NCBI GenBank assembly: GCA_037440365.1
Contig: JBBIUF010000003.1
Span: 28,910-92,909 of the forward strand
DNA: 64,000 nucleotides
Origin: Chloroflexota bacterium
GTDB taxonomy: Bacteria; Chloroflexota; Anaerolineae; UBA4142
Direction of reading: 5' to 3'
Below, one piece after another: positions 8,042 to 22,487 of the stretch (position 1 is its first letter; each line of letters opens with the position of its first letter). A program made the position numbers and the translations under genes. Below the pieces are notes generated by a model. It worked only from the letters and a program-made list of their open reading frames with translations, did not search any database and was not told the origin of the DNA.

Positions 8042-8083
8042 ATGACTCGAAAGAATCCCCACGTGGGGATTCTTTCGAGTCAT
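8042..8083 (-). terminator. 42-bp perfect palindrome, likely intrinsic terminator of the pfkB-family gene
   Basis: ATGACTCGAAAGAATCCCC-ACGT-GGGGATTCTTTCGAGTCAT. On the minus strand it lies 45 nt after the stop at 8128 and is followed by TTTCTTGTCC. Confidence 0.6.
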
Positions 8084-8127: not shown

Positions 8128-9039
8128 TCAAGTGTCTGGATTATTTTGCCAAGTCCGCCGCGCCTGGGTTAGTTTTTCATAGAGCATTTCAACTTCAGGC
8201 AGTGTGCCTCGAAAAGGGCCTTCAGTTTCCAATTTCAAACTCGTGACCGCCGCCGCCCAAGTAACCGCTTCGGCTGGGGGACTTGTCAAGCGCTTGGAAA
8301 GAAAAGCCGCAGTACACGTGTCGCCGCGGCCACTGCGGCCCTTGAGCGCGCGCGGGACGAGTGGCACTGTTTCAATGATGCCATCATGGTGGAGCAGGAC
8401 TTGCTCGCTCTGCGTCATCAAAATTTCACGCGGCCCCCATTGGGCAAGTTGGCGCAAGGCGGCATACGGATTCGATTCGCCAGTCAATCCTGTGGCTTCG
8501 ACCAGATCAGTCTTGAGCACGGTAACATATTGCAAGACCTCTTCCTTGTCCGGCCAATCGCCAAAGGTGAGTTTGCCATCTTTGGCAACGCGGATGTAAC
8601 CTTGCACATCCAGTGCGATCAGCGCGCCTTTCGCGGCAAGCGCCGCCACAACTTTTGTTGGAACTTCGCCACGCACCGATGCGCCGATGATAAACGCCTG
8701 CGCATTCACTTGCGCCACTTCGCTCACTGTGAAAGGACCTGCCGACGAAGTGATCTCAATGGTCCGCTGGTCCAAATTGGTGGTTGGGTAGCTCAAGCGC
8801 AAGCACGTCGAGGCAGGTGTGGCGTGCGCAAAAACCTGAACGCCTAATTGCTCCAACTCACGCACCACATGCCAGTCCTGTTGTGCCAAACGTGTGATCA
8901 CGCCTGCTCGCAAGCCCATCCGCGCAATAACGTTACAGCCATAATAAAACGCGCCGCCATCCACCGTGCGCGTTGCCTCCGGATAAATAATCGTGTCCTG
9001 GGTATAATGCCCAATATAGGCAATATCAAGTCTAGTCAT
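8128..9039 (-). CDS. PfkB-family carbohydrate kinase
   Basis: 303 aa. N-terminal DIAYIGH..QD and C-terminal GRGDTCTAAFL match the PfkB signature 2 region. Confidence 0.85.
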   Translation of the reverse strand: MTRLDIAYIGHYTQDTIIYPEATRTVDGGAFYYGCNVIARMGLRAGVITRLAQQDWHVVRELEQLGVQVFAHATPASTCLRLSYPTTNLDQRTIEITSSAGPFTVSEVAQVNAQAFIIGASVRGEVPTKVVAALAAKGALIALDVQGYIRVAKDGKLTFGDWPDKEEVLQYVTVLKTDLVEATGLTGESNPYAALRQLAQWGPREILMTQSEQVLLHHDGIIETVPLVPRALKGRSGRGDTCTAAFLSKRLTSPPAEAVTWAAAVTSLKLETEGPFRGTLPEVEMLYEKLTQARRTWQNNPDT

Positions 9040-9237
9040 AGTGTCTCACGTGACCTTGACAACAACATCGCAAATGATGTTTGCGGCTTTATCGCCCCAA
9101 TCGGCGGCGTTAGCAAGTGCCGCGCGATCTAAACCTCGCACTCGGTAATCCATCTCGTCCCGTCAGCGCCATCTCCAGATCTGCGCAAACAAGGTGCATT
9201 GCAACAAGGCAAAAGAAACTGGGCTGGTTACACAAGT

Positions 9238-10320
9238 TCATTCTTCTGCAATCAAATGACAGCGTTCCATTGGCAGATGCAAGCGGATCGCGTCGCCCGC
9301 CGCGTATCGGTGAAACGTATCGGCTTGCACGCGCAATTCCATGCCGGCTTCCAATTGCACCCGATAATCTACGATGTTCCCCAGGTACGTCGCGTGTTTG
9401 ACCACGCCCAGCAATAGATTCTTTTCCGTTTGTTTGTCTGCCAGCGCAATATCATACGGGCGAATATGAAGCAGAATAGATTGTCCCACCGCTAGCCGCG
9501 TTGGTGGCGTTGGCACGGTGAATACCTGGTTTGCCGCAGAAACTTGCGCCAAGTGAGCATCAAACGATTCCACGCGCGCGGGAATGAAATCGGACAAGCC
9601 GATGAAATCCGCGACAAAGCGTGATCGCGGGTGCTCGTAGATTTCTTCCGGCGAGCCGAGTTGCGCTAGCTTGCCCTTGTGCATAATCGCGATCTGATCG
9701 GACATGACGAGCGCTTCTTCCTGCGCGTGCGTCACATAAATCGCCGTGATGCCCAAACGCTTTTGCAGATCGCGAATTTCAAAACGCATCTCTTCGCGCA
9801 GTTTGGCGTCCAGGTTGGACAGCGGCTCGTCAAACAACAGCACTTTGGGTTCGATGACGAGCGCACGCGCGAGCGCAACGCGCTGTTGCTGTCCACCCGA
9901 CAGTTGGTTCGGCGCGCGATCTTCCAACCCAGTCAACTGGGTCAGCTTGGTCACTTCGGCTACGCGTCGCTTGATTTCTGCGGTTGAGAGTTTTTTGATC
10001 TTGAGACCATAGGCGATATTTTCAAATACATTGAGGTGCGGAAAGATGGCGTAACTCTGAAACACCATCGCCATATCCCGACGGTTGGGCGGGACATTTT
10101 CCAATTGGTGTGCGTCTAACACAATATGCCCGTCCGTGGGAAATTCAAAACCGGCAATCAGGCGCAACGTTGTCGTTTTGCCGCAACCCGATGGTCCGAG
10201 CAAGGTCACGAATTGGCCTTTTTCAATGTTGAGCGATACATCGTCTACCGCAATCACTTCGCCAATTTGCTTTCCGCGCGCGGGAAATTTTTTCGTCAGA
10301 TGATCGAGTGTGAGATACAT
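9238..10320 (-). CDS. ABC importer ATP-binding protein (FbpC/PotA/AfuC type)
   Basis: Start set at ATG 10320 (MYLTLDHLTKKF). Walker A GPSGCGKTT, signature LSGGQQQRVALARAL, Walker B LLFDEPLS. C-terminal TOBE-like domain. Confidence 0.9.
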   Translation of the reverse strand: MYLTLDHLTKKFPARGKQIGEVIAVDDVSLNIEKGQFVTLLGPSGCGKTTTLRLIAGFEFPTDGHIVLDAHQLENVPPNRRDMAMVFQSYAIFPHLNVFENIAYGLKIKKLSTAEIKRRVAEVTKLTQLTGLEDRAPNQLSGGQQQRVALARALVIEPKVLLFDEPLSNLDAKLREEMRFEIRDLQKRLGITAIYVTHAQEEALVMSDQIAIMHKGKLAQLGSPEEIYEHPRSRFVADFIGLSDFIPARVESFDAHLAQVSAANQVFTVPTPPTRLAVGQSILLHIRPYDIALADKQTEKNLLLGVVKHATYLGNIVDYRVQLEAGMELRVQADTFHRYAAGDAIRLHLPMERCHLIAEE

Positions 10321-10339
10321 GAATTCAACTCCGTTGGGA

Positions 10340-12691
10340 TTATCCAGCGCCCAGCGACAATTCGACGCCTTCGCCGCGGAATGCGCGCCCCACAATGGCA
10401 TACATTAAACCAATCGCCACCAGCACGATCAAAATCAGCACAAACGAATACGCGGCGGCAACGCTCGTGCCACCTTGTTCCACTTCGCTCATGATCAGCG
10501 CGGTCAAGATGGGCCATTTCGCCGAAGAAAGAAAAATGATCGCGGAAAGCGAGGTCATGTGCCGCGCAAAACTAAAGACCAGTCCGGCGATGAACGCGGG
10601 CAGAATCAGTGGTAGCGTGACCTGGCGAAAAGTTAGCGATGCATCAGCTCCCAGGTTCGTAGACGCTTCTTCGATTGCGGGATCAATTTGTTGCAGAGAG
10701 GCCATCCCCGCGCGCACGGACGCGGGCAAACTCCGCACCGCGTAGGCGGCAAGAATGATGTAGGGTGAACCAACCAGGGCAAGCGGCGTGCCCCAAAATG
10801 TGATCGCGCACGTGACCGCCACCAGTGCGACGGTGACTGGCCCCCGCGCGCGCGGCACAAAATGTCCCACCACATACGCGCCCAGCACCGTATACGTGAA
10901 ACCCAGGATCGCGGTCGGCGGCTGAAAGAGCAAATTGATCCATTTGGCAAGACTCGCCGCAAAGCGGGGAAGGAAATCGCCGCCCATGCCGCGGCCCCAA
11001 ATCGTAATTTGCACTGTGACCTCGGCGATGAATTCGCGTGACACCAGGTACGCCGCCATCAACACCAGCAAGACCACAAGCGCGCGCCGTGCTTTGCGAT
11101 CCGCCAACACCAGGCTCGCCGCGGCAATGATGAGCAAGACCGCCGCCAGCACAAACAACCAGGTTTTGTTATCCAGCGTCGGTAGAGTGGCAAACGGTTT
11201 GAGGAATTCGTTTGCCCAAAGCGGCTGGCGTGCTTTGGCATCCAGGTTCAGTATCAGCGCGCCCGCGCCCAAGCCCACACCGAGCGTCAGCGTCACTAGG
11301 CGCATGATCAAATTCTGCGTGCTGGGCGCGATTAGGTAGTACGCCAGCATGGCAAAAATCAGGACGACGACGATCAGGGGTGCTTGAATGAACGCGATGA
11401 TATAGCCAATCCCCAGGATCGTGCCAGGCACCGCGCCACCCAGGTTTGACGCAAAGTCAAGCGCTTCTTTGCCGCTAAAGGTTTTGCGGACTACGAGGTA
11501 TGCGATCACCATGCCCGCTAGTCCCGCAATCGGCGTTGCCAGTGCAGACAGGAATGTCGTGTCCAGAATCGCGGTCAAGCCCGCCGAGAACATGCGCCCA
11601 TAGTGGGAAAAATCAAGCGTGTAATCAACGCCCCAGAGTTTAGTGATCGAACCGAGAAAAATTGCCGAATAAAGCGCCAGGATCAAAACCAGGGTCAATC
11701 CCGTCAGCGTGATAAATGTCCACCGAATCAACGGTTCTTTGACAAAACCTGTGCCACCGCCGGTCGGCTTGCCGGTTACGGAAATGTACGATTTGCGCGC
11801 AACCCAGTAGCGTTGCAGGAGGTACACCGCCAGCGTCGGGAGAAGCAGAATCAGCGAGAGCGCCGCGCCTTTTTGCTGGTTGTACTCGCCCACGATCGCG
11901 ATCCAAATTTGGGTTGAGAGAACAGTTACGTTGCCGCCAATAAAAACCGGGTTGCCCAGGTCGGCAAGCGACTCGACAAACATCAACAAGAACGAAGCGG
12001 CGATGCCCGGTGTCAACAAGGGTAGCGTGATTGTCCGAAAGATATGCCATTTGCTCGCGCCTAGACTCAGCGCGGCTTCTTCCATTGACGGGTCAATGCG
12101 TTCAAGCATTCCGCGAATAATGAGATAAGCCACCGAAAAGAACGTAATGATTTGAACAAAGACCAAACCGTTCATGCCATAAATGCCCGTGTCGCCCGCT
12201 TTGAACTCCATGTGCAAAATATCTTTGGTGACGAGACCCGAACGACCAAAGAGTAAAATCGCGGCGATGGCAATGGCAAACGGGGGCGAGATCGTCGGCA
12301 GGAGGGTGAGCGCGTGGACGAGACGTTTGAACGGAATGTTGCATCGGACTAGGGTATACGCAAACAGGAATCCGAGCGCAGTGCTTCCAATCGCGGACAA
12401 GACGCCCATGGTGAGCGTGTCGCGAAATATCGTCCAATACTGCAAGGCATACTGGGGATTGAGGTAACGCCCAAATTGATCGAGGTTGAACGCGCCCGCG
12501 CGGGGTTGGCCGTCCGGCAAAAAGAACCCTTGCACGATCACCCGCGCCAGGGGCCACAGGACAAACGCGAACATGAACGCGCCAGTGATGATCAATCCGA
12601 TAAGGAGTACGGGGTCTTGGGCAATCAAACGTAATTCGCGGTAACGTCTGACCAGGGAATCAAACCGTGAGGAACGCGTGGCAACTGTCAT
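10340..12691 (-). CDS. Fused two-domain ABC importer permease (FbpB/AfuB type), unusually long (783 aa)
   Basis: Two EAA-loop regions (MEEAALSLGASKW..TLPLL and IEEASTNLGADAS..TLPLI). Many TM helices. Extra hydrophobic insert in the second half. Confidence 0.85.
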   Translation of the reverse strand: MTVATRSSRFDSLVRRYRELRLIAQDPVLLIGLIITGAFMFAFVLWPLARVIVQGFFLPDGQPRAGAFNLDQFGRYLNPQYALQYWTIFRDTLTMGVLSAIGSTALGFLFAYTLVRCNIPFKRLVHALTLLPTISPPFAIAIAAILLFGRSGLVTKDILHMEFKAGDTGIYGMNGLVFVQIITFFSVAYLIIRGMLERIDPSMEEAALSLGASKWHIFRTITLPLLTPGIAASFLLMFVESLADLGNPVFIGGNVTVLSTQIWIAIVGEYNQQKGAALSLILLLPTLAVYLLQRYWVARKSYISVTGKPTGGGTGFVKEPLIRWTFITLTGLTLVLILALYSAIFLGSITKLWGVDYTLDFSHYGRMFSAGLTAILDTTFLSALATPIAGLAGMVIAYLVVRKTFSGKEALDFASNLGGAVPGTILGIGYIIAFIQAPLIVVVLIFAMLAYYLIAPSTQNLIMRLVTLTLGVGLGAGALILNLDAKARQPLWANEFLKPFATLPTLDNKTWLFVLAAVLLIIAAASLVLADRKARRALVVLLVLMAAYLVSREFIAEVTVQITIWGRGMGGDFLPRFAASLAKWINLLFQPPTAILGFTYTVLGAYVVGHFVPRARGPVTVALVAVTCAITFWGTPLALVGSPYIILAAYAVRSLPASVRAGMASLQQIDPAIEEASTNLGADASLTFRQVTLPLILPAFIAGLVFSFARHMTSLSAIIFLSSAKWPILTALIMSEVEQGGTSVAAAYSFVLILIVLVAIGLMYAIVGRAFRGEGVELSLGAG

Positions 12692-12716
12692 AGTTAATCC
12701 ATCGTGTCGGGAGATG

Positions 12717-12744
12717 CGTAGGGGCGGGTCACCTCGCCCCTACG
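12717..12744. other. Intercistronic GC-rich hairpin between the SBP and permease genes
   Basis: CGTAGGGGCG-8 nt-CGCCCCTACG, a perfect 10-bp stem, located in the 62-nt gap between the stop at 12754 and the start at 12691. Confidence 0.6.
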
Positions 12745-12753
12745 CGGACGTTT

Positions 12754-13944
12754 TTATTTCGCGAGTGAAGCGGCGGCGATTTCGTTCGAGAATTTGTCGA
12801 TGAACGCCGTTTTGTTGTTACCGCAATAGTCAAAGTTATAGTTAATCAACTTGACTTGGAGCAGTTCGGGTTTGGGCGGAACAGCCCCCTTGATTGTCAA
12901 ACCCTGATACGCATGATATTTCTTGCCCAGTTCCTGCGTGCTGGCTTCGAGCGCCCAATCGTACCACGCTTTCGCGTTGTCAGGATTCTTCGCGCCCTTG
13001 ATGATCGCCATGCCGCCGATTTCATAGCCCGTGCCTTCGGCGGGGAAACTCAATTGCAATGGCATGCCCTGGTCTTGGATGCCCGTCACAATGTCATGCG
13101 AAAAGACGACGCCGACCGCGGCTTCGCCTTTACCGACGGTCTGCACGGGGGTCGCGCCGCTCTTGGTCCAGAGCAAAACGTTCTGCGCGAATTTCTTCAT
13201 GTAATCCCAGCCGGCGGTCTCGCCTTTGATCTGGAGGACGGTGCACATGAAGGTGTAGGACGTGCCGGAAGTTGCCGGGTGAGCGATGACGATCTGCCCT
13301 TTCATTTCCGGTTTGATCAAATCGTCGAATGAAGTCGGCGCTTTGATGGCGGTTTGCTTGGTGTTTGTTGCGAAACCGAGCGAACCGACGTAAATGCCAG
13401 TCCATGACGGAATTGGATCGGTGTCCAGCATCAATTTGGGATCGATGATGTTGGCTTGTTGGGCATCCTTGTACGGCTCGAGCAAGCCTTCTTTTTTCGC
13501 GGCGATTTGCGAATCAATGGGGCCACCCCACCAAATATCGAACTGGGGATTGGCTTTTTCATTGCGGAGACGAGTCACGGCTTCACCCGCGGACAAGCGG
13601 ATGTAGTTGACTGTCACGCCGGGGTACTTGGTCTCGAACTCTTTTTTCATGCCCGCGCACCATTCTTCTTGCGGCGTGCACAGGACATTGAGTTCACCCT
13701 TGACCACGCGCGGTGCAGTGGTTGGCGCAACCGTTGGCGGGACAGCCGTTGCCGCAACGGTAGGTGGCACAGTGGTCGCGGCTACGGTGGGCTTGGACGC
13801 ATCCGTTGGTTTCGGCGCGGCAGTCGGGGGGACAGCCGTTGGTGGCACTGTCGTTGGCGCAGGCGTCGGCGCGGGCGCGCACGCGGCAAGCGCAATCAGG
13901 ACGAGGGCGATCACAACAAACAACACGGTCTTGCGGGAAAACAT
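12754..13944 (-). CDS. ABC transporter substrate-binding lipoprotein (FbpA/AfuA, family-1 solute-binding type) with Pro/Thr-rich linker
   Basis: Start set at ATG 13944 (AAGGAG RBS). Signal plus lipobox LAAC. 56-aa P/T/A/V linker. Then NVLCT..EEW...YIRLSAGE...FDIWWGG, typical of the Fe3+/Afu-type SBP fold. Confidence 0.85.
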   Translation of the reverse strand: MFSRKTVLFVVIALVLIALAACAPAPTPAPTTVPPTAVPPTAAPKPTDASKPTVAATTVPPTVAATAVPPTVAPTTAPRVVKGELNVLCTPQEEWCAGMKKEFETKYPGVTVNYIRLSAGEAVTRLRNEKANPQFDIWWGGPIDSQIAAKKEGLLEPYKDAQQANIIDPKLMLDTDPIPSWTGIYVGSLGFATNTKQTAIKAPTSFDDLIKPEMKGQIVIAHPATSGTSYTFMCTVLQIKGETAGWDYMKKFAQNVLLWTKSGATPVQTVGKGEAAVGVVFSHDIVTGIQDQGMPLQLSFPAEGTGYEIGGMAIIKGAKNPDNAKAWYDWALEASTQELGKKYHAYQGLTIKGAVPPKPELLQVKLINYNFDYCGNNKTAFIDKFSNEIAAASLAK

Positions 13945-14035
13945 CCTTGTCTCCTTTTCGATCAGAATTGGGTATTCGTGCAAGTTGCATAAATCATAAC
14001 ACAACTTGGTAGATAGCACAATTTTTTTCGTTTGA

Positions 14036-14917
14036 TCATTGTTGCCGCATGACGTGTTCAACATCGGTCAGCGTGCCAGCCCACGGTCCGGGATTTTCTT
14101 GCTTCAAGGTTGTGACGACCGCGGCAAACCGACAGGCTTGATCGGGGGAGGTGCTCAAACGTCGTCCGAGGTACGAAGCAAAGCATGTGTCGCCGCGCCC
14201 TGTGCGACCGGCGAGTGAACGCGGCGTGAAGGGCGCTTGATGAATCTGTCCATCTGCAAATACGGTGACACCGGAAGATTGAGTTAAAATAATTTCGCGC
14301 GGACCATACGCATTCAATTTGCGCGCCGCGCTGGACAGATCGGTTTCACCGGTGAGCAATTCCGCTTCAGCGCGATCGACTTTCAAATAGGTAACGTGCT
14401 TGAGACCTTCTGCCATTTCCCGCCACGGACGAGAGACTAGGTCGTTGCCTTTGCGCATGCGAACAAATCCTTGCGCGTCCAGCGCAACTGGTCCACGCGC
14501 GGCAAGGTTTTGGAGAAACTCCAGGTTGAATTCGCCAGCGATGATCGGCGTGGTCGCATAGATGCGGGCGGTTACATTGGGAATATCTTTGATTTGCATT
14601 GCGCCGGCAAAGCCCAAGAGCCTGCACGTGCGACGTTCCATGTCCGTCGAGTGGTACGTGTTTTCGATGCCGGAGGTTTCCGGCGCGGGTTGGGCAAAAA
14701 CATCAATGCCTGCGTGTTTCAATTCGGCAAGCCGAAAAAAATCGTCGGGGTGGAGGCGTGTGACAATCGCAACGGAAAGACCCAGTCGCCGCGCGACGGC
14801 ACTGCCGAAATACACTGCGCCGCCCGAAGCGATCGCGCCGTGACCATCCACGACGTTATAATCTTTTGCAAAATGTCCGAACATGACGATGTCGTAATTT
14901 GTTTGCGTTAATTCCAA
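14036..14917 (-). CDS. PfkB-family carbohydrate kinase (second copy)
   Basis: 293 aa. TTG start keeps the conserved N-terminal strand YDIVMFGHF. C-terminal GRGDTCFASYL motif. 10-nt overlap with the upstream gene. Confidence 0.8.
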   Translation of the reverse strand: MELTQTNYDIVMFGHFAKDYNVVDGHGAIASGGAVYFGSAVARRLGLSVAIVTRLHPDDFFRLAELKHAGIDVFAQPAPETSGIENTYHSTDMERRTCRLLGFAGAMQIKDIPNVTARIYATTPIIAGEFNLEFLQNLAARGPVALDAQGFVRMRKGNDLVSRPWREMAEGLKHVTYLKVDRAEAELLTGETDLSSAARKLNAYGPREIILTQSSGVTVFADGQIHQAPFTPRSLAGRTGRGDTCFASYLGRRLSTSPDQACRFAAVVTTLKQENPGPWAGTLTDVEHVMRQQ

Positions 14918-15771
14918 AAGGTTTCTCCAAAGACAGATTGATCACAATTTCCAGGCATTGATATATGGCGCAAATGCTCAATTGCGCGTTGCGCGGCAGT
15001 CGCGGCATCTGGCACTGGCAAAAACTCGCCAGACACAAAGCCGGCATAGCCGCTAGCAACGAGTGAATTCATGATCGAACGAAAATCAAGATGCCCTGCG
15101 CCCGGTGACCAACGATTCGAGTCGGCGACGTGAAAATGAAAGATGCGGCGACCGGTTTGTTGAATGCTCGCTTCGATTGCGCGCTCTTCAATGTTCATGT
15201 GAAATGTATCCAGCAAGAGACCAAAATTATCCAGCCCCACGCGCTCGATCAAATCCAAGCCCTGGGTGGCGTTGTTGATCAGAGTCGTTTCGTAACGATT
15301 GATCGGCTCGAGCGCAAGCCGGACGCTCGAACCAGCCGCGAAGGCGCTACACTCGCGTAACGCTTCGACGAGCCAGATCATGGCTTGCGCATGATCGATC
15401 CCTGGCTTGACGATGCCGCGCACCAAGCCGATGATGATCACCGCGTCGAACCGGGACGCCGCAGGCACATGGCTTTTGATGCGCTCGATTGCCGCGCGTC
15501 GAATTGTCGGATCGGGATCGGTGAACGAGAGTCCTTCTTCGCCCCACGCTTGCCCTGTGCCAATCGCCGGCACGGACAAATGATGGCGGCGCACCAGGTG
15601 TGCGAGTTCGTCCAAATTGATGAGCTTGGGATCGCGGATTGCAAATTCAACGCCATCGTAACCGAGTGCGGCAATCTGTGCTAGGTTCGTTGCCAGATCG
15701 CCTTTGAACGTTGCCGCCTGAAACTTGGCGGGTTGAGTTGAAAGCACAATAGAGCATTTCATTATTTTCAC
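14908..15771 (-). CDS. Sugar phosphate isomerase/epimerase (xylose isomerase-like TIM barrel)
   Basis: 287 aa. Pattern GYDGVEF...LEPINRYET...DTFHMNIEE...HFHVADSNR is typical of AP-endonuclease-2/xylose-isomerase-like TIM barrels (IolE/IolI-like). Confidence 0.8.
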   Translation of the reverse strand: MKIMKCSIVLSTQPAKFQAATFKGDLATNLAQIAALGYDGVEFAIRDPKLINLDELAHLVRRHHLSVPAIGTGQAWGEEGLSFTDPDPTIRRAAIERIKSHVPAASRFDAVIIIGLVRGIVKPGIDHAQAMIWLVEALRECSAFAAGSSVRLALEPINRYETTLINNATQGLDLIERVGLDNFGLLLDTFHMNIEERAIEASIQQTGRRIFHFHVADSNRWSPGAGHLDFRSIMNSLVASGYAGFVSGEFLPVPDAATAAQRAIEHLRHISMPGNCDQSVFGETFWN

Positions 15772-15834
15772 AACGGATCAGAGCCAGCCGATTGCTCAAC
15801 CTGGTAGTTGACGATCGGCTGGCGTCCGCCAAGT

Positions 15835-17031
15835 TTAGGATGCCACGTACGTAATCTTACATTCACTCCGGTCGGTTTGCAGTTGGACAATGTTAGTCGG
15901 CAGTTCTTCCAAGCGGATTTTCTTGGTGCTGATGCGTGTCATATCCATGCCATCCGCCATGCACTCGATCACGCGCGGAAAGTTGCCGTGTCCTGAATGT
16001 CCCTGTGCGCCGATGATGCTGGCACGCCGCACTTGTAACACTTCGCCGGTGACAGGCATTTTGGCTTCAGCGCGCGCGGTCACCACGACGCGGCTGTTCA
16101 AGGTGCGCCCTTCCCAAATCACGCGCTCAATGCCGGGATAAACTTGGGTCGGCAAGCCGGTGGCTTCCATAAACAGATCCGCGCCCATGCCTGCAGTGAG
16201 TTCCAACACGCGCTCCGCGAAATCTTCCTTGAGCGGATTGATGGCATAGTCCGCGCCCACCTTCAAAGCGAGATCGGTGCGCTCCGCTTGCGGCTCGGAA
16301 ATGATCACCTGGGATGCTCCCGCGCGTTTGAGGATCGCACACGCGGCAATGCCAACGGGGCCACCGCCCAAAATGACCACGCGATCGCCAGGGCGAATGC
16401 CGCCGCCACGTTCGATCACCGCGTTATACGCCACACAGGTTGGCTCGATCAAACTACCGGCAATAAAAATGTCGTCGCCGTGATAGCGTCGTGCCATTGG
16501 CTCCAAACTCCAGATCGTGCGCGCGGGCAGAACCATGTATTGGGCATACGCGCCGTTCACGTTAAAACCCACTTCGTCCAAACGTTCGCAGTGGTTGGGT
16601 TGCCCATCCGCGCATGGACGGCAACTGGCGCACCACAACATTTCTTCCGAGGTCACGCGCTCGCCACCCTTGAATGGTTTGTTTGTGCGTTTGTCGAATG
16701 CCTTCTTGCCGGCTTGAACCACGACGCCGGAAAATTCATGGCCGAGAATACTGGGAAAGCCAGTCAGACCTGGATAGAGAATATAGCCATCCTTGTCCGC
16801 TTGTGACATATGCACATCTGAGCCGCAGATGCCGCAGGCTTTAACCTCAAGCAACACTTCGTCGGGACCGGGTGTGGGAATAGCATACTCGCGAATTTCG
16901 AGACGTGGGTTACGCCACACTTGACTGCCCGAATACGTTTGATGCCCTTGGATATCTTTTGCGCCCAACTTGAATCCGGGTTTGGGCGACCAATCGGCGA
17001 CCAGGGTCACACCTGCCATTTTGCCGCTCAT
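15835..17031 (-). CDS. Zinc-dependent medium-chain dehydrogenase (sorbitol/polyol dehydrogenase-like)
   Basis: 398 aa. ACGICGSDVH and GHEFSGVV zinc-ligand motifs. GGGPVG Rossmann motif. AAGGAG RBS. Confidence 0.85.
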   Translation of the reverse strand: MSGKMAGVTLVADWSPKPGFKLGAKDIQGHQTYSGSQVWRNPRLEIREYAIPTPGPDEVLLEVKACGICGSDVHMSQADKDGYILYPGLTGFPSILGHEFSGVVVQAGKKAFDKRTNKPFKGGERVTSEEMLWCASCRPCADGQPNHCERLDEVGFNVNGAYAQYMVLPARTIWSLEPMARRYHGDDIFIAGSLIEPTCVAYNAVIERGGGIRPGDRVVILGGGPVGIAACAILKRAGASQVIISEPQAERTDLALKVGADYAINPLKEDFAERVLELTAGMGADLFMEATGLPTQVYPGIERVIWEGRTLNSRVVVTARAEAKMPVTGEVLQVRRASIIGAQGHSGHGNFPRVIECMADGMDMTRISTKKIRLEELPTNIVQLQTDRSECKITYVAS

Positions 17032-17112
17032 TGTCGTACTCCTTGGATTATCATTTTTTGGATCGAGGGAAACATTACGAGTCGCGCTAGAAAATGTTTT
17101 GTCATTACAAAC

Positions 17113-18234
17113 CTAGACTTCGGTGCCTTGCCCGATGCGTGGAATGCCATATACGGTTTTCCAACCGGGGCTAAGGGGTTCGCGCAGATAGGGTTCCATT
17201 TCGGCTTGGGTGCGCAACGTCACCTGTTCCACGGGCGGGACTTGGCCCGGCGGAAAAGCGGCAAGCACATCATCTGCCCACAGCGTCAGATATTTCAGAA
17301 TTGCCGCCATCGGTCGTTTTGCTTTTTGCGCCGCGCCCGCTTTAGCTTTACCCACGACGCCTTCGGGGGTTGCCGCGATCTCGATCGCAAAATGGCCTTC
17401 ACCTTCCGACCAGCGGCTGGGGCGCCCAAACGGATCCACAGATTTATCAAAGTGACCTTCGGGCATAAAGTTTTTGCCTTCGGTGTCCACGGCGTACCGC
17501 ATATCAACCATTTCCGGATGCAGTAACAGGCTCAATGATGTTTCGGACTCGTCCGCATGAACAAAGTTGGTGTCCATCTGCCCGCCGCGATCAGTGGAAC
17601 GGAAGAATTCACGTACGCCTCGATGCCAGTCAATCACGCGGAAAATGCCGGGCAATTGATAGCGCTTCATAAATTCTTGCACGGCGGATTCCAGCATCCA
17701 TAACTGACCGTGATTGTTCACAATGATCTGTTTGCGAAAACCATCATTCCACAAACCCAGCATCACGTCAATCATCATTTCACGGACGGCGTGCTCACGC
17801 ACGATCACCGTGCCGGGCATACCCAAGTGATGGTACGGATGGCCGCCATAATTCAGCGGCGGCAAAGCCAGGTTGATCGGCGCGCCGCGCTTGGCGGTAT
17901 AGCGGCGCACGCCTTCACAGATGGCGCTGACGTAGAGCGTATCTGCGGCGCTCGGCAAGTGCTGTCCATGCAATTCCGTGCAACCCACTGGGATAAACAC
18001 AATGTCGTTCTTTTTGCGATTCTGCTCAACTTGCCAGCGGGTGGTGGTCTGAATATACGATCCTGGCTTACCCCATTCGACGGGCGAAGGAATTCCATAG
18101 TCAGCCAGGATCGCGTCAATCTGCTCATCGGTAGCTTGCCAGATTTCTTTCTTCATGCGCCCCACGCTGTTATCTTCGAAAAACAGGTCGGGCTGATTTG
18201 TGGCTAGAAATCCATGCGGTACATTGGTGGTCAT
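17113..18234 (-). CDS. Creatininase-family amidohydrolase
   Basis: 373 aa. FIPVGCTELHGQHLPSAADT matches the creatininase/ArfB/MftE family metal-binding signature. Confidence 0.75.
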   Translation of the reverse strand: MTTNVPHGFLATNQPDLFFEDNSVGRMKKEIWQATDEQIDAILADYGIPSPVEWGKPGSYIQTTTRWQVEQNRKKNDIVFIPVGCTELHGQHLPSAADTLYVSAICEGVRRYTAKRGAPINLALPPLNYGGHPYHHLGMPGTVIVREHAVREMMIDVMLGLWNDGFRKQIIVNNHGQLWMLESAVQEFMKRYQLPGIFRVIDWHRGVREFFRSTDRGGQMDTNFVHADESETSLSLLLHPEMVDMRYAVDTEGKNFMPEGHFDKSVDPFGRPSRWSEGEGHFAIEIAATPEGVVGKAKAGAAQKAKRPMAAILKYLTLWADDVLAAFPPGQVPPVEQVTLRTQAEMEPYLREPLSPGWKTVYGIPRIGQGTEV

Positions 18235-18280
18235 TTTATTTTTTCCTTTGCACTAGTTAGATTGATCAAACGATCGGGCA

Positions 18281-19114
18281 TTATTCAATTTTGAAATAGG
18301 GGCTCAGCACGTTGAGCGCAGTCGCTTTTGCTTTCACCGCAACTTGGCGCGGCTCCCAACTCCAATACTCGGGACGAAACAGTTCGACGGAGCAAGAACC
18401 ATCGTAGCCAATGCCTTTGAGCCGCGCGCAAATTTCGGCAAGCGGAATCACGCCCAGACCAGGGAACAGCCGGGTCGCATCTGTGATCGCTTCCTTGGGC
18501 GTATCGTCGAGATCGTCGAGGTGAAAAGCAAAGATGCGTTTTGGATCGAGTTGATCAAGTTCACTCAGCAGTCCGCCGCCGCCAAACAAGTGCGCCGCGT
18601 CAATCGTCATGCCGATATTGTCACGATCTGTTTTTTGCACGATCTCGAATGCGGCGCGCGGCGTGCGGACACTGCACCAACCAAATCCTAGAAATTCGAA
18701 CGAGAGTTTGATGCCGTACCGGTGCGCGATCTCACCCAAGTCACGCAACACCGTGACATACTCGGTAACGATGTCTGCCCAAGCCAGGTTACGGTCAGGC
18801 GTCGGGCTAGGCACGACGACGATGGTTGGACAATGAATGGCTTGAGCGATGCGGCAGAGCTCGTGACAACGCGCTTGAATGCGCGTATAGTCTTGTCCGC
18901 GAAACGCAATAAACTCGATCGAGTTGATTGCACTGGGGGTAATGCTATGGTCGGCAAACAAAGCGTTGAGTTCAGCCAGCGCATGGTGCGTTAGGTACTG
19001 ATCCATTTTGGTCGCCCACACTTCGAGTGCCTTGAAACCAGCATACGCGGTAATGGCAACATCGGTTTCGAGATCGCTCGTCATTGTTGTTGCACCATGA
19101 AAACCCAACTGCAT
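18281..19114 (-). CDS. Sugar phosphate isomerase/epimerase (xylose isomerase-like TIM barrel, second copy)
   Basis: 277 aa. GFKALEV, FEFLGF, DAAHLF and FHLDD motifs of the TIM-barrel family. AAAGGAG RBS. Confidence 0.8.
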
Positions 19115-19159
19115 GATTCACTCCTTTAATTGCGGTTGCCCAATGTCACGGCGCGCCTG

Positions 19160-20170
19160 TTAGCCAATCTCGCTTAATTTGACTGGACGATTCTCGCGGT
19201 ACGATTTCCACGCGGCATATCCCAACACCACTGCCATGCGTCCATCATGACCATTCGTCGGCGTAGGCTTGTCATCGCGCACACATTCGATAAATTGGCG
19301 GACTTCTTCCACATAGCACGGCGCATAGCGAGCCATGAAAAAGTAGGGCGGTCGCGCGGAATGATAACCATCCTTGGTGCCTCGAACGACAGTATTTTCC
19401 GCTTCGTTGTCGGCTCTAGCGTTGCCGTTCGAGCAAAACACTTCGAGTTGTTGATCATAGCCATAAACTGCCTGGCGACTGTTGTCAATGACCCCGATTG
19501 CGCCATTCGTGAATTTTAATGTGACCAGAGTTGTGTCGAGATCATTCACCTCGGCGAGTTGCGGCGCGACGAGGACGTTGCCCAAAGCATAGACTTGTTC
19601 AATCTCGCCGACCTGGTAACGCGCCATATCGAAATCGTGAATGGTCATATCGAGAAACATTCCCCCCGAGCCGCGCGCGTATTCGACTGAGGGTGGTTCT
19701 GGATCACGGCTGGCGATGCGCAGGATGCAGGGTTTGCCAATGTCGCCGGAAGCCACAATGTCATGCACCTGTTTGAAACTTTTATCAAAGCGGCGATTGA
19801 ACCCGACTTGGAGTTTGACGCCGGCTTGATCCACTGTGGCCAGTGCGTCATCAATGGTAGCCAGGTCGAGTGCGAGCGGCTTTTCGCAAAAAATATGTTT
19901 ACCCGCCGCCGCGACATCTTTCATGATGAATGCGTGGGTGTTCGTCGTGGTGGCAATCAGAATTGCTTCAATGTCCTGGTCTGCGAGGAGCTCGTGATAA
20001 TCACGCACGACTCGCTTGACCCCCAGTTCGTCGGCGAGCGCTTGCGCGACATCGAGGCGGAGATCGCACACCGCCACCAAGTCCGCTTCGGGGATGAGGC
20101 GCGCGAGATTACGTGCATGGACACTGCCCATCCGCCCTGTGCCGATCACCGCAATTTTGATTTTTTTCAT
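19160..20170 (-). CDS. Gfo/Idh/MocA-family NAD(P) oxidoreductase (inositol 2-dehydrogenase-like)
   Basis: 336 aa. MKKIKIAVIGTGRMG Rossmann N-terminus, EKP motif (FCEKPLA), and IolG-like length. Confidence 0.85.
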   Translation of the reverse strand: MKKIKIAVIGTGRMGSVHARNLARLIPEADLVAVCDLRLDVAQALADELGVKRVVRDYHELLADQDIEAILIATTTNTHAFIMKDVAAAGKHIFCEKPLALDLATIDDALATVDQAGVKLQVGFNRRFDKSFKQVHDIVASGDIGKPCILRIASRDPEPPSVEYARGSGGMFLDMTIHDFDMARYQVGEIEQVYALGNVLVAPQLAEVNDLDTTLVTLKFTNGAIGVIDNSRQAVYGYDQQLEVFCSNGNARADNEAENTVVRGTKDGYHSARPPYFFMARYAPCYVEEVRQFIECVRDDKPTPTNGHDGRMAVVLGYAAWKSYRENRPVKLSEIG

Positions 20171-20171
20171 A

Positions 20172-21221
20172 TCAGGGTTGAACCTGCATCACGATTTTCA
20201 TTGCGCTCTTGGGTTTATGCGTCAAGGTTTTGAGATCGAGACCCAAGTCCTCAAACGCGCTCAAGCCTTCCATCAGCGGAATGACCTTGGTGAAAAATGG
20301 TTTCATGTCCAAGCGCTTTTCTTGGAACAAGCGAATTGAGGGTACCATGGTGTTCTGACCCAGGTACAAGCCTAGAATTTTAGTCGCCCAACGGGTAATT
20401 TCGTTCGGCACCACCGTGGCTTGGATACTCGAATCCATGCCAAAAGGCAACACTTTGCCGCCAGGCGTTACACATTGCAAGGCGGTCTCCAACGCATTGC
20501 CAGTCGCTTCGATGACAATATCGGCTTTGCGACCGTAAGTGAACGCGGTGATTTTTTCGACCACGTTGACCTCGTTCGGATTCCAAACGGTCAGTCCACA
20601 TTCCTTGGCAACATTAATGCGAAAAGGATCGATCTCGGTCACGGCAACTTTGGCGGCAATGTTCTTGGCGAACTGGGCGAACAAATAGCCGATCGGGCCG
20701 AACCCCAGGATCATCACATAATCATAGGGCAACATCAAAAGCGTGTTCATGCCATTGACGACTGTCGCCAGCGTTTCAACTTGCGTGCCTAGCACATTAT
20801 CAATTTCTGGCGGCAGAACAAAACATTGCTTTTCCGGCACTAGGCAGTACTCGGCATAGCCGCCATCGCGCATCACCCCGAGTGCGCTGGTCTTGATCTC
20901 GACACACTGGCTACTCAAGCCCATGCGGCAAAACGAGCAAAAGCCGCAACGGATATTATTATCAATCGCCACGCGGTCGCCCAGTTGCAGATGCGTTACA
21001 TGCGTGCCAATGTCCACGACTTCGCCGCAAAATTCGTGACCCAGCACCGTGTTGGGTTTGAAATGGTGTTTGCCTTCGAGAATCTTGACGTCCGTCCCGC
21101 AGATGCCAACCGTTTTTACTTTGAGCAACACGTCATCTGGGGCTTGGACTTGCGGAATGGGAATTTCTTCGGCGACTAGGTTGCCTACATTCTTAAATAC
21201 GAGCGCTTGCATTGTGTTCAT
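20172..21221 (-). CDS. Zinc-dependent medium-chain dehydrogenase (threonine/sorbitol dehydrogenase-like)
   Basis: 349 aa. GICGTDV and GHEFCGEV motifs, plus the structural-zinc Cys cluster CGFCSFC. 1-nt gap to the next gene. Confidence 0.85.
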   Translation of the reverse strand: MNTMQALVFKNVGNLVAEEIPIPQVQAPDDVLLKVKTVGICGTDVKILEGKHHFKPNTVLGHEFCGEVVDIGTHVTHLQLGDRVAIDNNIRCGFCSFCRMGLSSQCVEIKTSALGVMRDGGYAEYCLVPEKQCFVLPPEIDNVLGTQVETLATVVNGMNTLLMLPYDYVMILGFGPIGYLFAQFAKNIAAKVAVTEIDPFRINVAKECGLTVWNPNEVNVVEKITAFTYGRKADIVIEATGNALETALQCVTPGGKVLPFGMDSSIQATVVPNEITRWATKILGLYLGQNTMVPSIRLFQEKRLDMKPFFTKVIPLMEGLSAFEDLGLDLKTLTHKPKSAMKIVMQVQP

Positions 21222-21328
21222 AGTGCACTCCTCGAGTTATTTAGCATCACCGCAGACTTGGGCTTGCGATGAGGTTTGGACCTTCCTGGGTTGGAGCGTT
21301 TTTGGGCGCGATAAAAGAGCGCGCTGGT

Positions 21329-22333
21329 TTAGGTCTGGCTTTGCGGCGACGATTCCCGCACAATCAACTCGCCTGGAATTACCACGTCCGAAACTTGGGA
21401 TGCCGGATCGTTCATCAGCGTCAATGCCATGTGCATCGCTTGCTGGCCCATTTCAAGCATGGGCTGGTGAATCGTCGTCAACGGCGGATCGACGTACATG
21501 CCAAACGCAATATCGTCAAACCCTACGAGCGCCATGTCAGCAGGCACGCGAATCCTGTGTTGTCTAAGGGTACTGAGGGCGCCGATTGCCGTGATATCGT
21601 TGTAACAGAAAACGGCGGTGGGGATTGGGGTATGCGACAAGAGCCGGGTGATCTGTGCGCCACCTTCGATGCGGCCGTTGCCAGCTACAACCAGGGTCGG
21701 ATCAAAAATAATTCCGGCTTTTTTCAAGGCACTGCGATAACCCGCGAGGCGATTCTTGCTCGCCGCATAACCTTTCGGTCCGCAGATGTGACCAATCGTG
21801 CGATGTCCGAGCGCAAGCAGGTGGTTCGTGGCAAGTTTTGCGCCCTGGGTATCGTCAATTGCAATCGAGTGGATGAACGAGCCTTGTTGCTGGTTATTGA
21901 TCAGCACAATCGGCACGCCAATATCCTGAAGGATTGAACTGTACAGTGAACCCACGCGGGACGATGCGACGATCACACCATCCACGCGCCATTCGCGCAA
22001 CGCTTTGACCGAGTTGATTTCACGCTCGGGATCGTTATGCGATGTGCCGAGAACGACGCGATAACCATTATCGCCGGCGATTTGTTCAATGCCGCGGACA
22101 ACTTCGGCGACAAAAGGATCGGCGATCGAGGTAACGATCACGCCGATCGCGTGCGTCCGCTGGGTCACGAGGCCGCGTGCGATTGCGTTAGGGGTATAGC
22201 CGAGTTTCTTGGCGATCCGTTCGACGCGGTGCCGAGTTTTTGCGGGGATCAGCGGGCTGTTCGCAAGCGCGCGGGAGACAGTAGAATGAGAAACGCTAGC
22301 GGCTTTGGCAACGTCTTTGATCGAGACTTTCAT
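21329..22333 (-). CDS. LacI-family transcriptional regulator
   Basis: Start set at ATG 22333 (MKVSIKDVAKAASVSHSTVSRAL, the HTH motif). Periplasmic-binding-protein-like effector domain. Confidence 0.9.
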   Translation of the reverse strand: MKVSIKDVAKAASVSHSTVSRALANSPLIPAKTRHRVERIAKKLGYTPNAIARGLVTQRTHAIGVIVTSIADPFVAEVVRGIEQIAGDNGYRVVLGTSHNDPEREINSVKALREWRVDGVIVASSRVGSLYSSILQDIGVPIVLINNQQQGSFIHSIAIDDTQGAKLATNHLLALGHRTIGHICGPKGYAASKNRLAGYRSALKKAGIIFDPTLVVAGNGRIEGGAQITRLLSHTPIPTAVFCYNDITAIGALSTLRQHRIRVPADMALVGFDDIAFGMYVDPPLTTIHQPMLEMGQQAMHMALTLMNDPASQVSDVVIPGELIVRESSPQSQT

Positions 22334-22348
22334 TGTCCCTCTATAATT

Positions 22349-22364
22349 ATGCACACGTGTGCAT
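22349..22364. promoter_or_regulatory. 16-bp perfect palindrome, candidate LacI-family operator
   Basis: ATGCACACGTGTGCAT with a central CG, 16 nt upstream of the lacI-family start codon, inside an AT-rich promoter-like stretch. Confidence 0.5.
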
Positions 22365-22487
22365 GAAGAATATAACAGAAAACGCGCTTGCCGTCAAGTC
22401 AAGCCGGGAACTGGTCGGGCGGGGTCACGGTTTTGGCCAAGTTCGAACTTTCCCAAAACTGGGATGCGCTCTGCTCACGCCAGGGGC

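Follow-up and report, generated by a model that had tools for sequence, protein, structure and literature searches.

A LacI-type operon of an Anaerolineae bacterium predicted to encode Thermotoga-type myo-inositol catabolism

Rodionova et al. are said to have described, in 2013, a Thermotoga pathway from inositol to D-tagaturonate, whose transporter, InoEFGK, reportedly binds inositol phosphate. The TM0411–TM0416 operon of Thermotoga maritima has been described as a myo-inositol catabolic cluster (PMC5931981), the regulon includes InoEFGK and an IolR of the ROK family (PMC3750489), and IolO has been cited as the 5-keto-L-gluconate 4-epimerase of this organism (PMC12632266). Here, we describe a twelve-gene locus in a 64,000-nucleotide (nt) stretch of DNA from a Chloroflexota bacterium of the class Anaerolineae (assembly GCA_037440365.1, contig JBBIUF010000003.1). 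This stretch is referred to as the window, and coordinates count from its first letter. We consider it roughly 85% probable that the region is one LacI-repressed operon for myo-inositol catabolism of the Thermotoga type (IolG-IolM-IolN-IolO).

The locus shares with TM0411–TM0416 the four catalytic enzymes at the equivalog level, a TM0415-type kinase, an ABC importer linked to the enzymes, and a predicted product, D-tagaturonate, that feeds a UxaE-type hexuronate route. The regulators differ: IolR of T. maritima belongs to the ROK family, whereas the regulator here belongs to the LacI family, a non-orthologous replacement that leaves the catalytic pathway untouched. Present here but not in the T. 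maritima operon are a second TM0415-like kinase, an additional Zn-dependent dehydrogenase of the MDR family (MDR_A), an IolI-like isomerase, and an N-terminal extension of ~57 residues in IolN. In addition, the host is a Chloroflexota bacterium, and its AfuABC-like importer has a fused permease. With the iol operon of Bacillus subtilis (IolG, E, D, B, C, J, and A, with IolI), the locus has in common the IolG step and an IolI-like barrel. However, the ring would be opened differently: here, by a second oxidation and a creatininase-fold hydrolase; in B. subtilis, by dehydration and a thiamine diphosphate-dependent hydrolase.

Enzymes of the predicted route

Enzymes were named using NCBIfam equivalog models with NCBI's curated cut-offs, families were assigned using Pfam, and solved relatives were identified by searching the PDB. 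Based on these data, the enzymes for which a first-pass annotation of the window had named no pathway are the predicted IolG, IolM, IolN, and IolO of the published T. maritima route. The scores were 430 bits for IolG (TIGR04380, cut-off 355), 511 bits for IolM (NF041097, cut-off 450), 308 bits for IolN (NF041098, cut-off 245), and 343 bits for IolO (NF041099, cut-off 300). The match of IolN spanned residues 58–364, the N-terminal extension lying beyond the model. The best PDB matches were 3EZY for IolG (359 bits), 3IP1 for IolM (554 bits), and 2ZVR, labelled TM_0416, for IolO (224 bits). We take 3EZY and 3IP1 to be TM0414 and TM0412 of T. maritima, respectively. Thus, the four core assignments rest on equivalog-level homology to enzymes characterized elsewhere. 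The IolI-like barrel matched B. subtilis IolI (PDB 1I60) over its full length with 164 bits and has no NCBIfam equivalog.

In the proposed pathway, IolG would convert myo-inositol to scyllo-inosose, and IolM would convert the latter to a diketone, 3-dehydro-scyllo-inosose. Hydrolytic ring opening of the diketone by IolN would yield 5-keto-L-gluconate, which IolO would epimerize to D-tagaturonate. The IolI-like barrel may admit D-chiro-inositol via isomerization of an inosose. The pathway is already known, and standard pipelines annotate it: KEGG orthologues for iolM (K22231) and iolN (K22232) exist and are in routine use. What looked like an 'orphan pathway' thereby disappears, its key enzymes already having names in curated models (NCBIfam equivalogs; KEGG).

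The first-pass annotation had instead proposed an uncharacterized route for a substituted cyclitol, a sugar alcohol, or an amino/acyl-sugar, with the creatininase-family protein acting as an amidohydrolase. Such a route would fit the non-canonical gene content, in which IolD, IolE, and IolC were not found, as well as the extra dehydrogenase, the second kinase, and a substrate-binding protein (SBP) of the phosphate-ester type. However, the supposed amidohydrolase exceeded the IolN cut-off as given above and scored only 72 bits on the creatininase model (cut-off 235), while IolM, IolO, and IolG also surpassed their cut-offs and have their best solved relatives in T. maritima. We therefore regard an uncharacterized route as highly improbable. 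On the same scores, the creatininase-fold protein was rejected as an amidase; identities as MftE or ArfB were likewise ruled out on curated scores. What stands of the proposal is that the route is not of the B. subtilis type; it is not novel, as equivalog-level matches to IolM, IolN, and IolO place it with the published Thermotoga-type route. The enzymes fall into orthodox Iol clades that have already been named. With respect to the substrate, amino- or acyl-sugars are not indicated because IolN is predicted to be a C-C hydrolase of diketo-inositol and not an amidohydrolase. A phosphorylated inositol may fit the idea of a substituted substrate, as the closest solved relatives of the SBP bind phosphate esters.

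We evaluated the host genome (4.06 Mb, 93% complete) for the canonical genes using profile searches of its assembled contigs. IolD (best match 248 bits, cut-off 715), IolE (30 bits, cut-off 290), and IolC (110 bits, cut-off 300) were not found genome-wide. Because these matches are so far below the cut-offs, the Bacillus-type route is not encoded in the assembled contigs, and the concern that the missing genes might lie elsewhere in the genome was not borne out for these three. Of the genes originally listed as missing from the cluster, IolD and IolB are indeed not there, nor are IolE and IolC; IolJ and IolA, whose families are not pathway-specific, were not searched. An IolB/KduI-type match occurs on another contig (C27:34966–38348), where it scored a borderline 216 bits (cut-off 205). 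Its neighbors are SDR and PfkB genes, and the gene looks like part of a KduI-KduD-KdgK set for unsaturated uronates, not of an iol pathway.

Operon structure and regulation

The predicted features are summarized in Table 1. All twelve open reading frames (ORFs) of the first-pass annotation are present as consecutive genes on the minus strand with the positions and Pfam families it gave: LacI, two ADH_N/ADH_zinc_N, one GFO_IDH_MocA, two AP_endonuc_2, Creatininase, two PfkB, an SBP, a permease, and an ABC ATPase with TOBE. The short or overlapping junctions were also confirmed, ranging from small overlaps to 198 nt on the longest-ORF calls. The genes span 8128–22333 after correction of start codons (8128–22354 on the longest-ORF calls). 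Specifically, the start of the LacI gene was moved to 22333, where an ATG follows GAGGGA, as the GTG at 22354 falls inside the operator. The SBP was reassigned to M41 of its ORF (13944), which yields a signal peptide with the lipobox LAAC. The promoter and operator on one side and the terminator on the other bracket the twelve genes. An Rfam scan of the region detected no riboswitch or other RNA family. The hairpin between the SBP and permease genes may stabilize the mRNA or stop antisense transcription.

Table 1. Predicted features of the inositol operon in the window.
Feature	Position	Strand	Basis and remarks
Sigma-70-like promoter, predicted	22369..22397	-	TTGACG, 17 nt, TATATT, extended TG; 10/12 consensus matches only; directly upstream of operator and LacI
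Perfect 16-bp palindromic LacI-type operator, predicted	22349..22364	.	ATGCACACGTGTGCAT; sole zero-mismatch match of the 14-bp core in the window
LacI-family repressor, predicted functional counterpart of IolR	21329..22333	-	Pfam LacI helix-turn-helix and Peripla_BP_1/3; ATG with ribosome-binding site
MDR_A, Zn-dependent dehydrogenase, IolM paralogue	20172..21221	-	Best NCBIfam match is the IolM model, far below cut-off
IolG, predicted inositol 2-dehydrogenase	19160..20170	-	TIGR04380; PDB 3EZY
IolI-like TIM barrel, probable inosose isomerase	18281..19114	-	PDB 1I60
IolN, predicted 3-dehydro-scyllo-inosose hydrolase, creatininase fold	17113..18234	-	NF041098
IolM, predicted scyllo-inosose 3-dehydrogenase	15835..17031	-	NF041097; PDB 3IP1
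IolO, predicted 5-keto-L-gluconate 4-epimerase	14908..15771	-	NF041099; PDB 2ZVR
PfkB1, TM0415-type, predicted pyrophosphate-dependent inositol kinase	14036..14917	-	PDB 1VK4/5YSP; RTGRGD
AfuA/P5PA-like substrate-binding lipoprotein with Pro/Thr-rich linker	12754..13944	-	PDB 4R72-4R75, 6WCE; lipobox LAAC
GC-rich hairpin between SBP and permease genes	12715..12746	.	14-pair stem; T-tract on antisense strand only
Fused two-module ABC permease, AfuB/PhnU2-like, 783 aa	10340..12691	-	BPD_transp_1
ABC ATPase with TOBE_2 domain	9238..10401	-	Longest ORF; true start probably later; 62-nt overlap with permease gene
PfkB2, second TM0415-like kinase, divergent acceptor site	8128..9039	-	PDB 7E4L, TM0415; RSGRGD
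Intrinsic terminator ending the operon	8042..8083	-	19-bp stem and T-tract

The regulator and its predicted binding site have the features of a LacI/GalR-type repressor-operator pair: the protein combines HTH_LacI with a periplasmic-binding-protein fold, and a palindrome with a central CG lies near the promoter. Comparison of the region 5' of MDR_A in 64 relatives revealed the palindrome (A/T)TGCACACGTGTGCA(A/T) in about 42 of them, mostly 28–60 nt before the start codon and rarely further away. The single perfect copy in the window lies between the -10 box and the ribosome-binding site of the LacI gene. Because of this position, the LacI gene would open an autoregulated unit of twelve genes, all of which the LacI protein would control by binding upstream of its own start codon.

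The 14-bp core occurs without mismatch only twice in the 4.06-Mb genome, as compared to ~0.015 perfect copies expected by chance. The second copy (contig C74:14213–14226; 8214–8227 of locus L096) precedes an operon (L096:8336–14600) of two permeases, a quinone-oxidoreductase-like MDR protein, a CUT1-type SBP, a glycerophosphodiester phosphodiesterase (GDPD), and a GntR-family gene. These genes may form a second operon under the same regulator, and the regulon would then link inositol catabolism with phosphodiester headgroups.

Conservation and downstream genes in Anaerolineae

A scan using one genome per species yielded 173 relatives of IolN, the best 80 of which were used to compare loci. These 80 are 87–91% identical to the protein described here and, with few exceptions, carry the label Anaerolineae or Chloroflexota. 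Gene conservation was evaluated by tblastn of all twelve proteins, and partners were identified by clustering neighboring ORFs and assigning Pfam families; gene order was readable only where flanks suffice. The first-pass annotation had set store by joint conservation in relatives, and the core is indeed strongly co-conserved. The order MDR_A-IolG-(IolI-like)-IolN-IolM-IolO was kept wherever the flanks were long enough, with identities of 64–89% for MDR_A, 53–80% for IolG, mostly 80–89% for IolM, and 50–81% for IolO. MDR_A adjoins IolG in nearly all loci with a flank covering that position, and the IolI-like barrel is present in 22 of the 80. The kinase pair and importer are linked to the core in only one locus (L079) and partly so in three others (L035, L064, L075). 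In a sample of 201 Anaerolineae genomes, 88 contain an IolN match. The Thermotoga-type inositol route is widespread in this class, and its conservation there is unusually high.

The degree of conservation of IolN is itself unusual, being 87–91% across species labelled as many different genera. Anaerolineae also have a second, shorter clade of IolN (~37–44% identity), and some genomes contain both. Two contigs with other labels, Gallionellaceae (L008) and Acidobacteria (L046), encode IolN proteins 91% and 89% identical, respectively, to the Anaerolineae protein; they are probably mis-binned and not the result of gene transfer.

The most frequent partners at the 80 loci were a PfkB kinase of ~365 aa (41 loci), a LacI-family regulator (35), the tagaturonate epimerase UxaE (33), an SDR (32), 6-phosphogluconate dehydrogenase (6PGD; 30), and a LarA-like protein (29). 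The arrangement LacI-UxaE-SDR-LarA-6PGD-PfkB-MDR_A-IolG-IolN-IolM-IolO recurs (e.g., L031, L047, L052, L064), and 17 of the 61 MDR_A-containing loci combine the iol core with all five of the UxaE, SDR, LarA-like, 6PGD, and PfkB genes. This single arrangement would carry inositol through to ribulose-5-phosphate. Many Anaerolineae genomes join, in one operon, the inositol route to a route into the pentose phosphate pathway via UxaE, a LarA-like epimerase, and Gnd. A literature search found no paper describing this arrangement for Anaerolineae. A GlcD-like FAD oxidase and a CCG/4Fe-4S protein occur in 23–28 of the 80 loci and, where examined, lie between IolG/IolI and IolN (e.g., L013:7255–10000, L035:7274–10000, L047:13381–17134). 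A second FAD oxidase with EtfAB occurs in 12–20 relatives, after IolO where examined.

In the host genome, the D-tagaturonate route, i.e., UxaE and the genes that follow it, is present on contigs C62 and C106, whose genes are the likely downstream steps. C62 encodes UxaC (513 bits, cut-off 387), D-mannonate oxidoreductase (383 bits, cut-off 281), UxaE, a Gfo-family protein, and a LarA-like protein, with a divergent LacI gene beside them. The best model for the LarA-like protein, 'putative hexonate epimerase', scored 196 bits (cut-off 500). C106 encodes Gnd (681 bits, cut-off 413), a PfkB kinase, and a histidine phosphatase. UxaE would convert D-tagaturonate to fructuronate, which the SDR mannonate oxidoreductase would convert to mannonate. 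The LarA-like protein as a hexonate 2-epimerase, the PfkB kinase, and Gnd would then lead from mannonate to ribulose-5-phosphate. Directly adjoining the UxaC/LarA-like/UxuB/UxaE cluster are glpA and glpB (C62:10–3165), encoding anaerobic glycerol-3-phosphate dehydrogenase.

A route connecting hexuronates with the pentose phosphate pathway was reportedly described by Rodionova in 2012. As proposed for T. maritima, this route comprises UxaE, GntE, GntK, and Gnd (Desguin 2020, PMC7583248); the same gene set lies beside the iol core in relatives and on C62 and C106 here. LarA homologues have been shown to possess GntE activity (PMC7583248; PMC6978723), although the LarA-like protein here is below the hexonate-epimerase cut-off and the kinase is of the PfkB type, not a classical GntK. 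An alternative order of steps, using a kinase for mannonate and an epimerase for 6-phosphomannonate, has also been described (PMC6978723).

Kinases, importer and physiological substrate

PfkB1 and PfkB2 resemble TM0415, a pyrophosphate (PPi)-dependent inositol kinase, and PPi is the predicted phosphate donor of both. PfkB1 best matched TM0415 (PDB 1VK4/5YSP) with 167 bits, while PfkB2 scored 135 bits on 7E4L and 130 bits on TM0415. Nagata et al. (2018) defined the PPi signature of TM0415 as K171, F221, R229, R232, and M266 together with an RxGRGD motif (PMC5931981). In PfkB1, four of the five donor-site residues are kept (K, F, R, R, Q; M266 is Q), and the motif is GRTGRGD. In PfkB2, the residues are K, L, R, R, and L, with both F221 and M266 replaced by leucine, and the motif is GRSGRGD. 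Thus, the motif and the three basic donor residues, K171, R229, and R232, are common to both kinases and the TM0415 group, the lysine lying in an LKVD or LKTD stretch. In contrast to that group, the two hydrophobic residues that occlude the pocket are not both kept, one being replaced in PfkB1 and both in PfkB2, and two paralogues occur in one operon. The acceptor site of PfkB1 (I, N, C, and I for I76, N78, S89, and L116) is close to that of TM0415. That of PfkB2 has N78L, S89I, and L116S and resembles homolog 49 from Levilinea saccharolytica (Chloroflexota), which was assayed as PPi-dependent, carries N78L, S89L, and L116S, and is thought by the authors to have an acceptor other than inositol (PMC5931981). 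Using PPi, both kinases may convert inositol to inositol phosphate and back.

Kinases of this kind occur in 61 of the 201 sampled genomes, often encoded by two neighboring genes, and 51 of these 61 also have an IolN match, a co-occurrence to be read in light of the fact that related genomes are non-independent samples. A strict dependence of the kinases on the importer was rejected, as 44 of the 61 genomes have no SBP orthologue and the kinases track IolN. The host genome also encodes two members of the inositol monophosphatase (IMPase) family and an H+-pumping pyrophosphatase (H+-PPase). A model for PPi-dependent phosphofructokinase (PPi-PFK; TIGR02477) had no match above cut-off in the genome, so that a 'PPi economy' would rest solely on the H+-PPase.

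The closest solved relatives of the SBP are AfuA (PDB 4R72–4R75; 214 bits) and P5PA, a pyridoxal-phosphate binding protein (6WCE; 185 bits). Iron- and polyamine-binding SBPs scored far lower, and the phnS2 model yielded 204 bits (cut-off 393). Because its closest solved relatives are AfuA and P5PA, the SBP is suggested to bind a phosphorylated ligand; AfuA binds glucose 6-phosphate, fructose 6-phosphate, and sedoheptulose 7-phosphate (PMC4546632). The importer would accordingly take up a phosphorylated substrate, most likely an inositol monophosphate. Like AfuABC (Sit et al. 2015, PMC4546632), it combines a fused double permease with a single ATPase; two stretches of the permease match in the PhnU2, CysT, and PotC models, and a C-terminal module lies at residues 622–772. 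Unlike in AfuABC, the SBP is a lipoprotein, its lipobox (LAAC) being followed by a linker of ~56 residues rich in Pro, Thr, Ala, and Val before the globular domain (13711–13944), and it is encoded in a Chloroflexota inositol operon; the likeness is drawn from overall scores. The proximity of two TM0415-like kinases to an importer of the phosphate-ester type makes the physiological role of PPi-dependent kinases directly testable.

We considered three further readings of the accessory genes. In one, compatible with the core pathway, the importer and two kinases would salvage inositol phosphates by a PPi-forming reaction (inositol-P + Pi -> inositol + PPi), saving the phosphoester bond before IolG, IolM, IolN, and IolO act. 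Consistent with this are the PPi motif in both kinases, the AfuA/P5PA-like SBP, the H+-PPase, the very high Km of TM0415 for inositol (PMC5931981), and the kinase genes that adjoin those of the SBP, permease, and ATPase in three genomes (G187, G085, G042) and at L079. In G038, a genome from the family of the host, the kinases are accompanied by a GDPD gene and the SBP by a DUF89 phosphatase gene. Nevertheless, no reverse reaction has been reported, the 'reverse reaction' in PMC5931981 concerning PPi-PFK; most kinase genomes (44/61) are without this SBP; and the two IMPase-family proteins could dephosphorylate the substrate instead. We consider this salvage quite unlikely. The same grade applies to its extension, in which inositol monophosphates or glycerophosphoinositol products, once imported, would be dephosphorylated by phosphorolysis and the phosphoester bond kept as PPi for an energy economy based on PPi, the paralogues would cover different phosphate positions, and the same repressor would control the C74 operon. 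Alternatively, the importer could be a passenger that takes up, for example, hexose phosphates or organophosphates, free inositol entering by another transporter. The ligands of AfuA (PMC4546632), the orthologues of the SBP beside unrelated genes in genomes in which IolN was not found, and the lack of this importer at most related iol loci would all fit. However, the importer genes are situated between those of IolO/PfkB1 and PfkB2, the whole unit lies under one operator, the stretch between the SBP and permease genes showed no terminator-like hairpin whose T-tract would be on the sense strand, and L079 and G038 have the linkage as well; a passenger is thus rather unlikely. Finally, MDR_A could provide a second entry. 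Its substrate might be L-gluconate or L-galactonate, both L-hexonates, which it would oxidize to 5-keto-L-gluconate or D-tagaturonate; or it might form an inosose from a different inositol stereoisomer. Either way, several substrates would be degraded through the operon. MDR_A adjoins IolG, is well conserved (64–89% identity), and comes first among the structural genes. The L-galactonate dehydrogenase of Escherichia coli is a Zn-dependent MDR enzyme, and IolO-type epimerases act in an L-glucose/L-gluconate route (PMC12632266). By the cut-offs, MDR_A is neither a threonine dehydrogenase (Tdh model, 167 bits, cut-off 458) nor a second IolM (172 bits, cut-off 450), and both identities were rejected. 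It has no specific homology to a characterized L-hexonate dehydrogenase, its best matches being threonine dehydrogenases or uncharacterized proteins such as PDB 4EJ6. A second entry is therefore a tentative possibility.

Several observations weigh against our assignment of the region to myo-inositol catabolism. T. maritima fails to grow on inositol, and neither inositol nor inositol phosphate elicited a response from its regulator (PMC3750489), so that even in that organism the physiological substrate is unsettled. The Km of TM0415 for inositol is 12 mM, and the authors question whether inositol is its true acceptor (PMC5931981). MDR_A, the most conserved accessory gene, is claimed by no equivalog model and is unexplained. 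No operator was found before the uronate genes on C62 and C106 at up to two mismatches. Orthologues of the SBP (at least 58% identity) occur in 32 of the 201 sampled genomes; 19 of the 32 have an IolN match, and in the other 13, in which IolN was not found, the SBP clade has unrelated gene contexts. Further, a distant member of the class with the same enzymes in a Thermotoga-like gene order (G145; IolM-IolG-barrel-IolI-SBP-permease-permease-ATPase-PfkB2-IolN-PfkB1-IolO) has split permeases and an unrelated SBP in the equivalent position, and because of this SBP the importer is not an obligate part of the pathway. Finally, the conversion of myo-inositol to D-tagaturonate by the enzymes of the operon is a prediction from sequence.

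The SBP and kinase genes are arranged differently in G038, where the SBP gene adjoins that of a DUF89/ARMT1-like phosphatase and the kinase pair adjoins a GDPD gene, a context in favor of a phosphorylated ligand. The rearranged locus (L094; G038:C96:32000–50000) has the order ATPase-permease-SBP-DUF89 phosphatase-small ORF-LysM protein-IolM-IolG-MDR_A-LacI-PfkB2-PfkB1-GDPD, and IolN is encoded on a contig other than C96.

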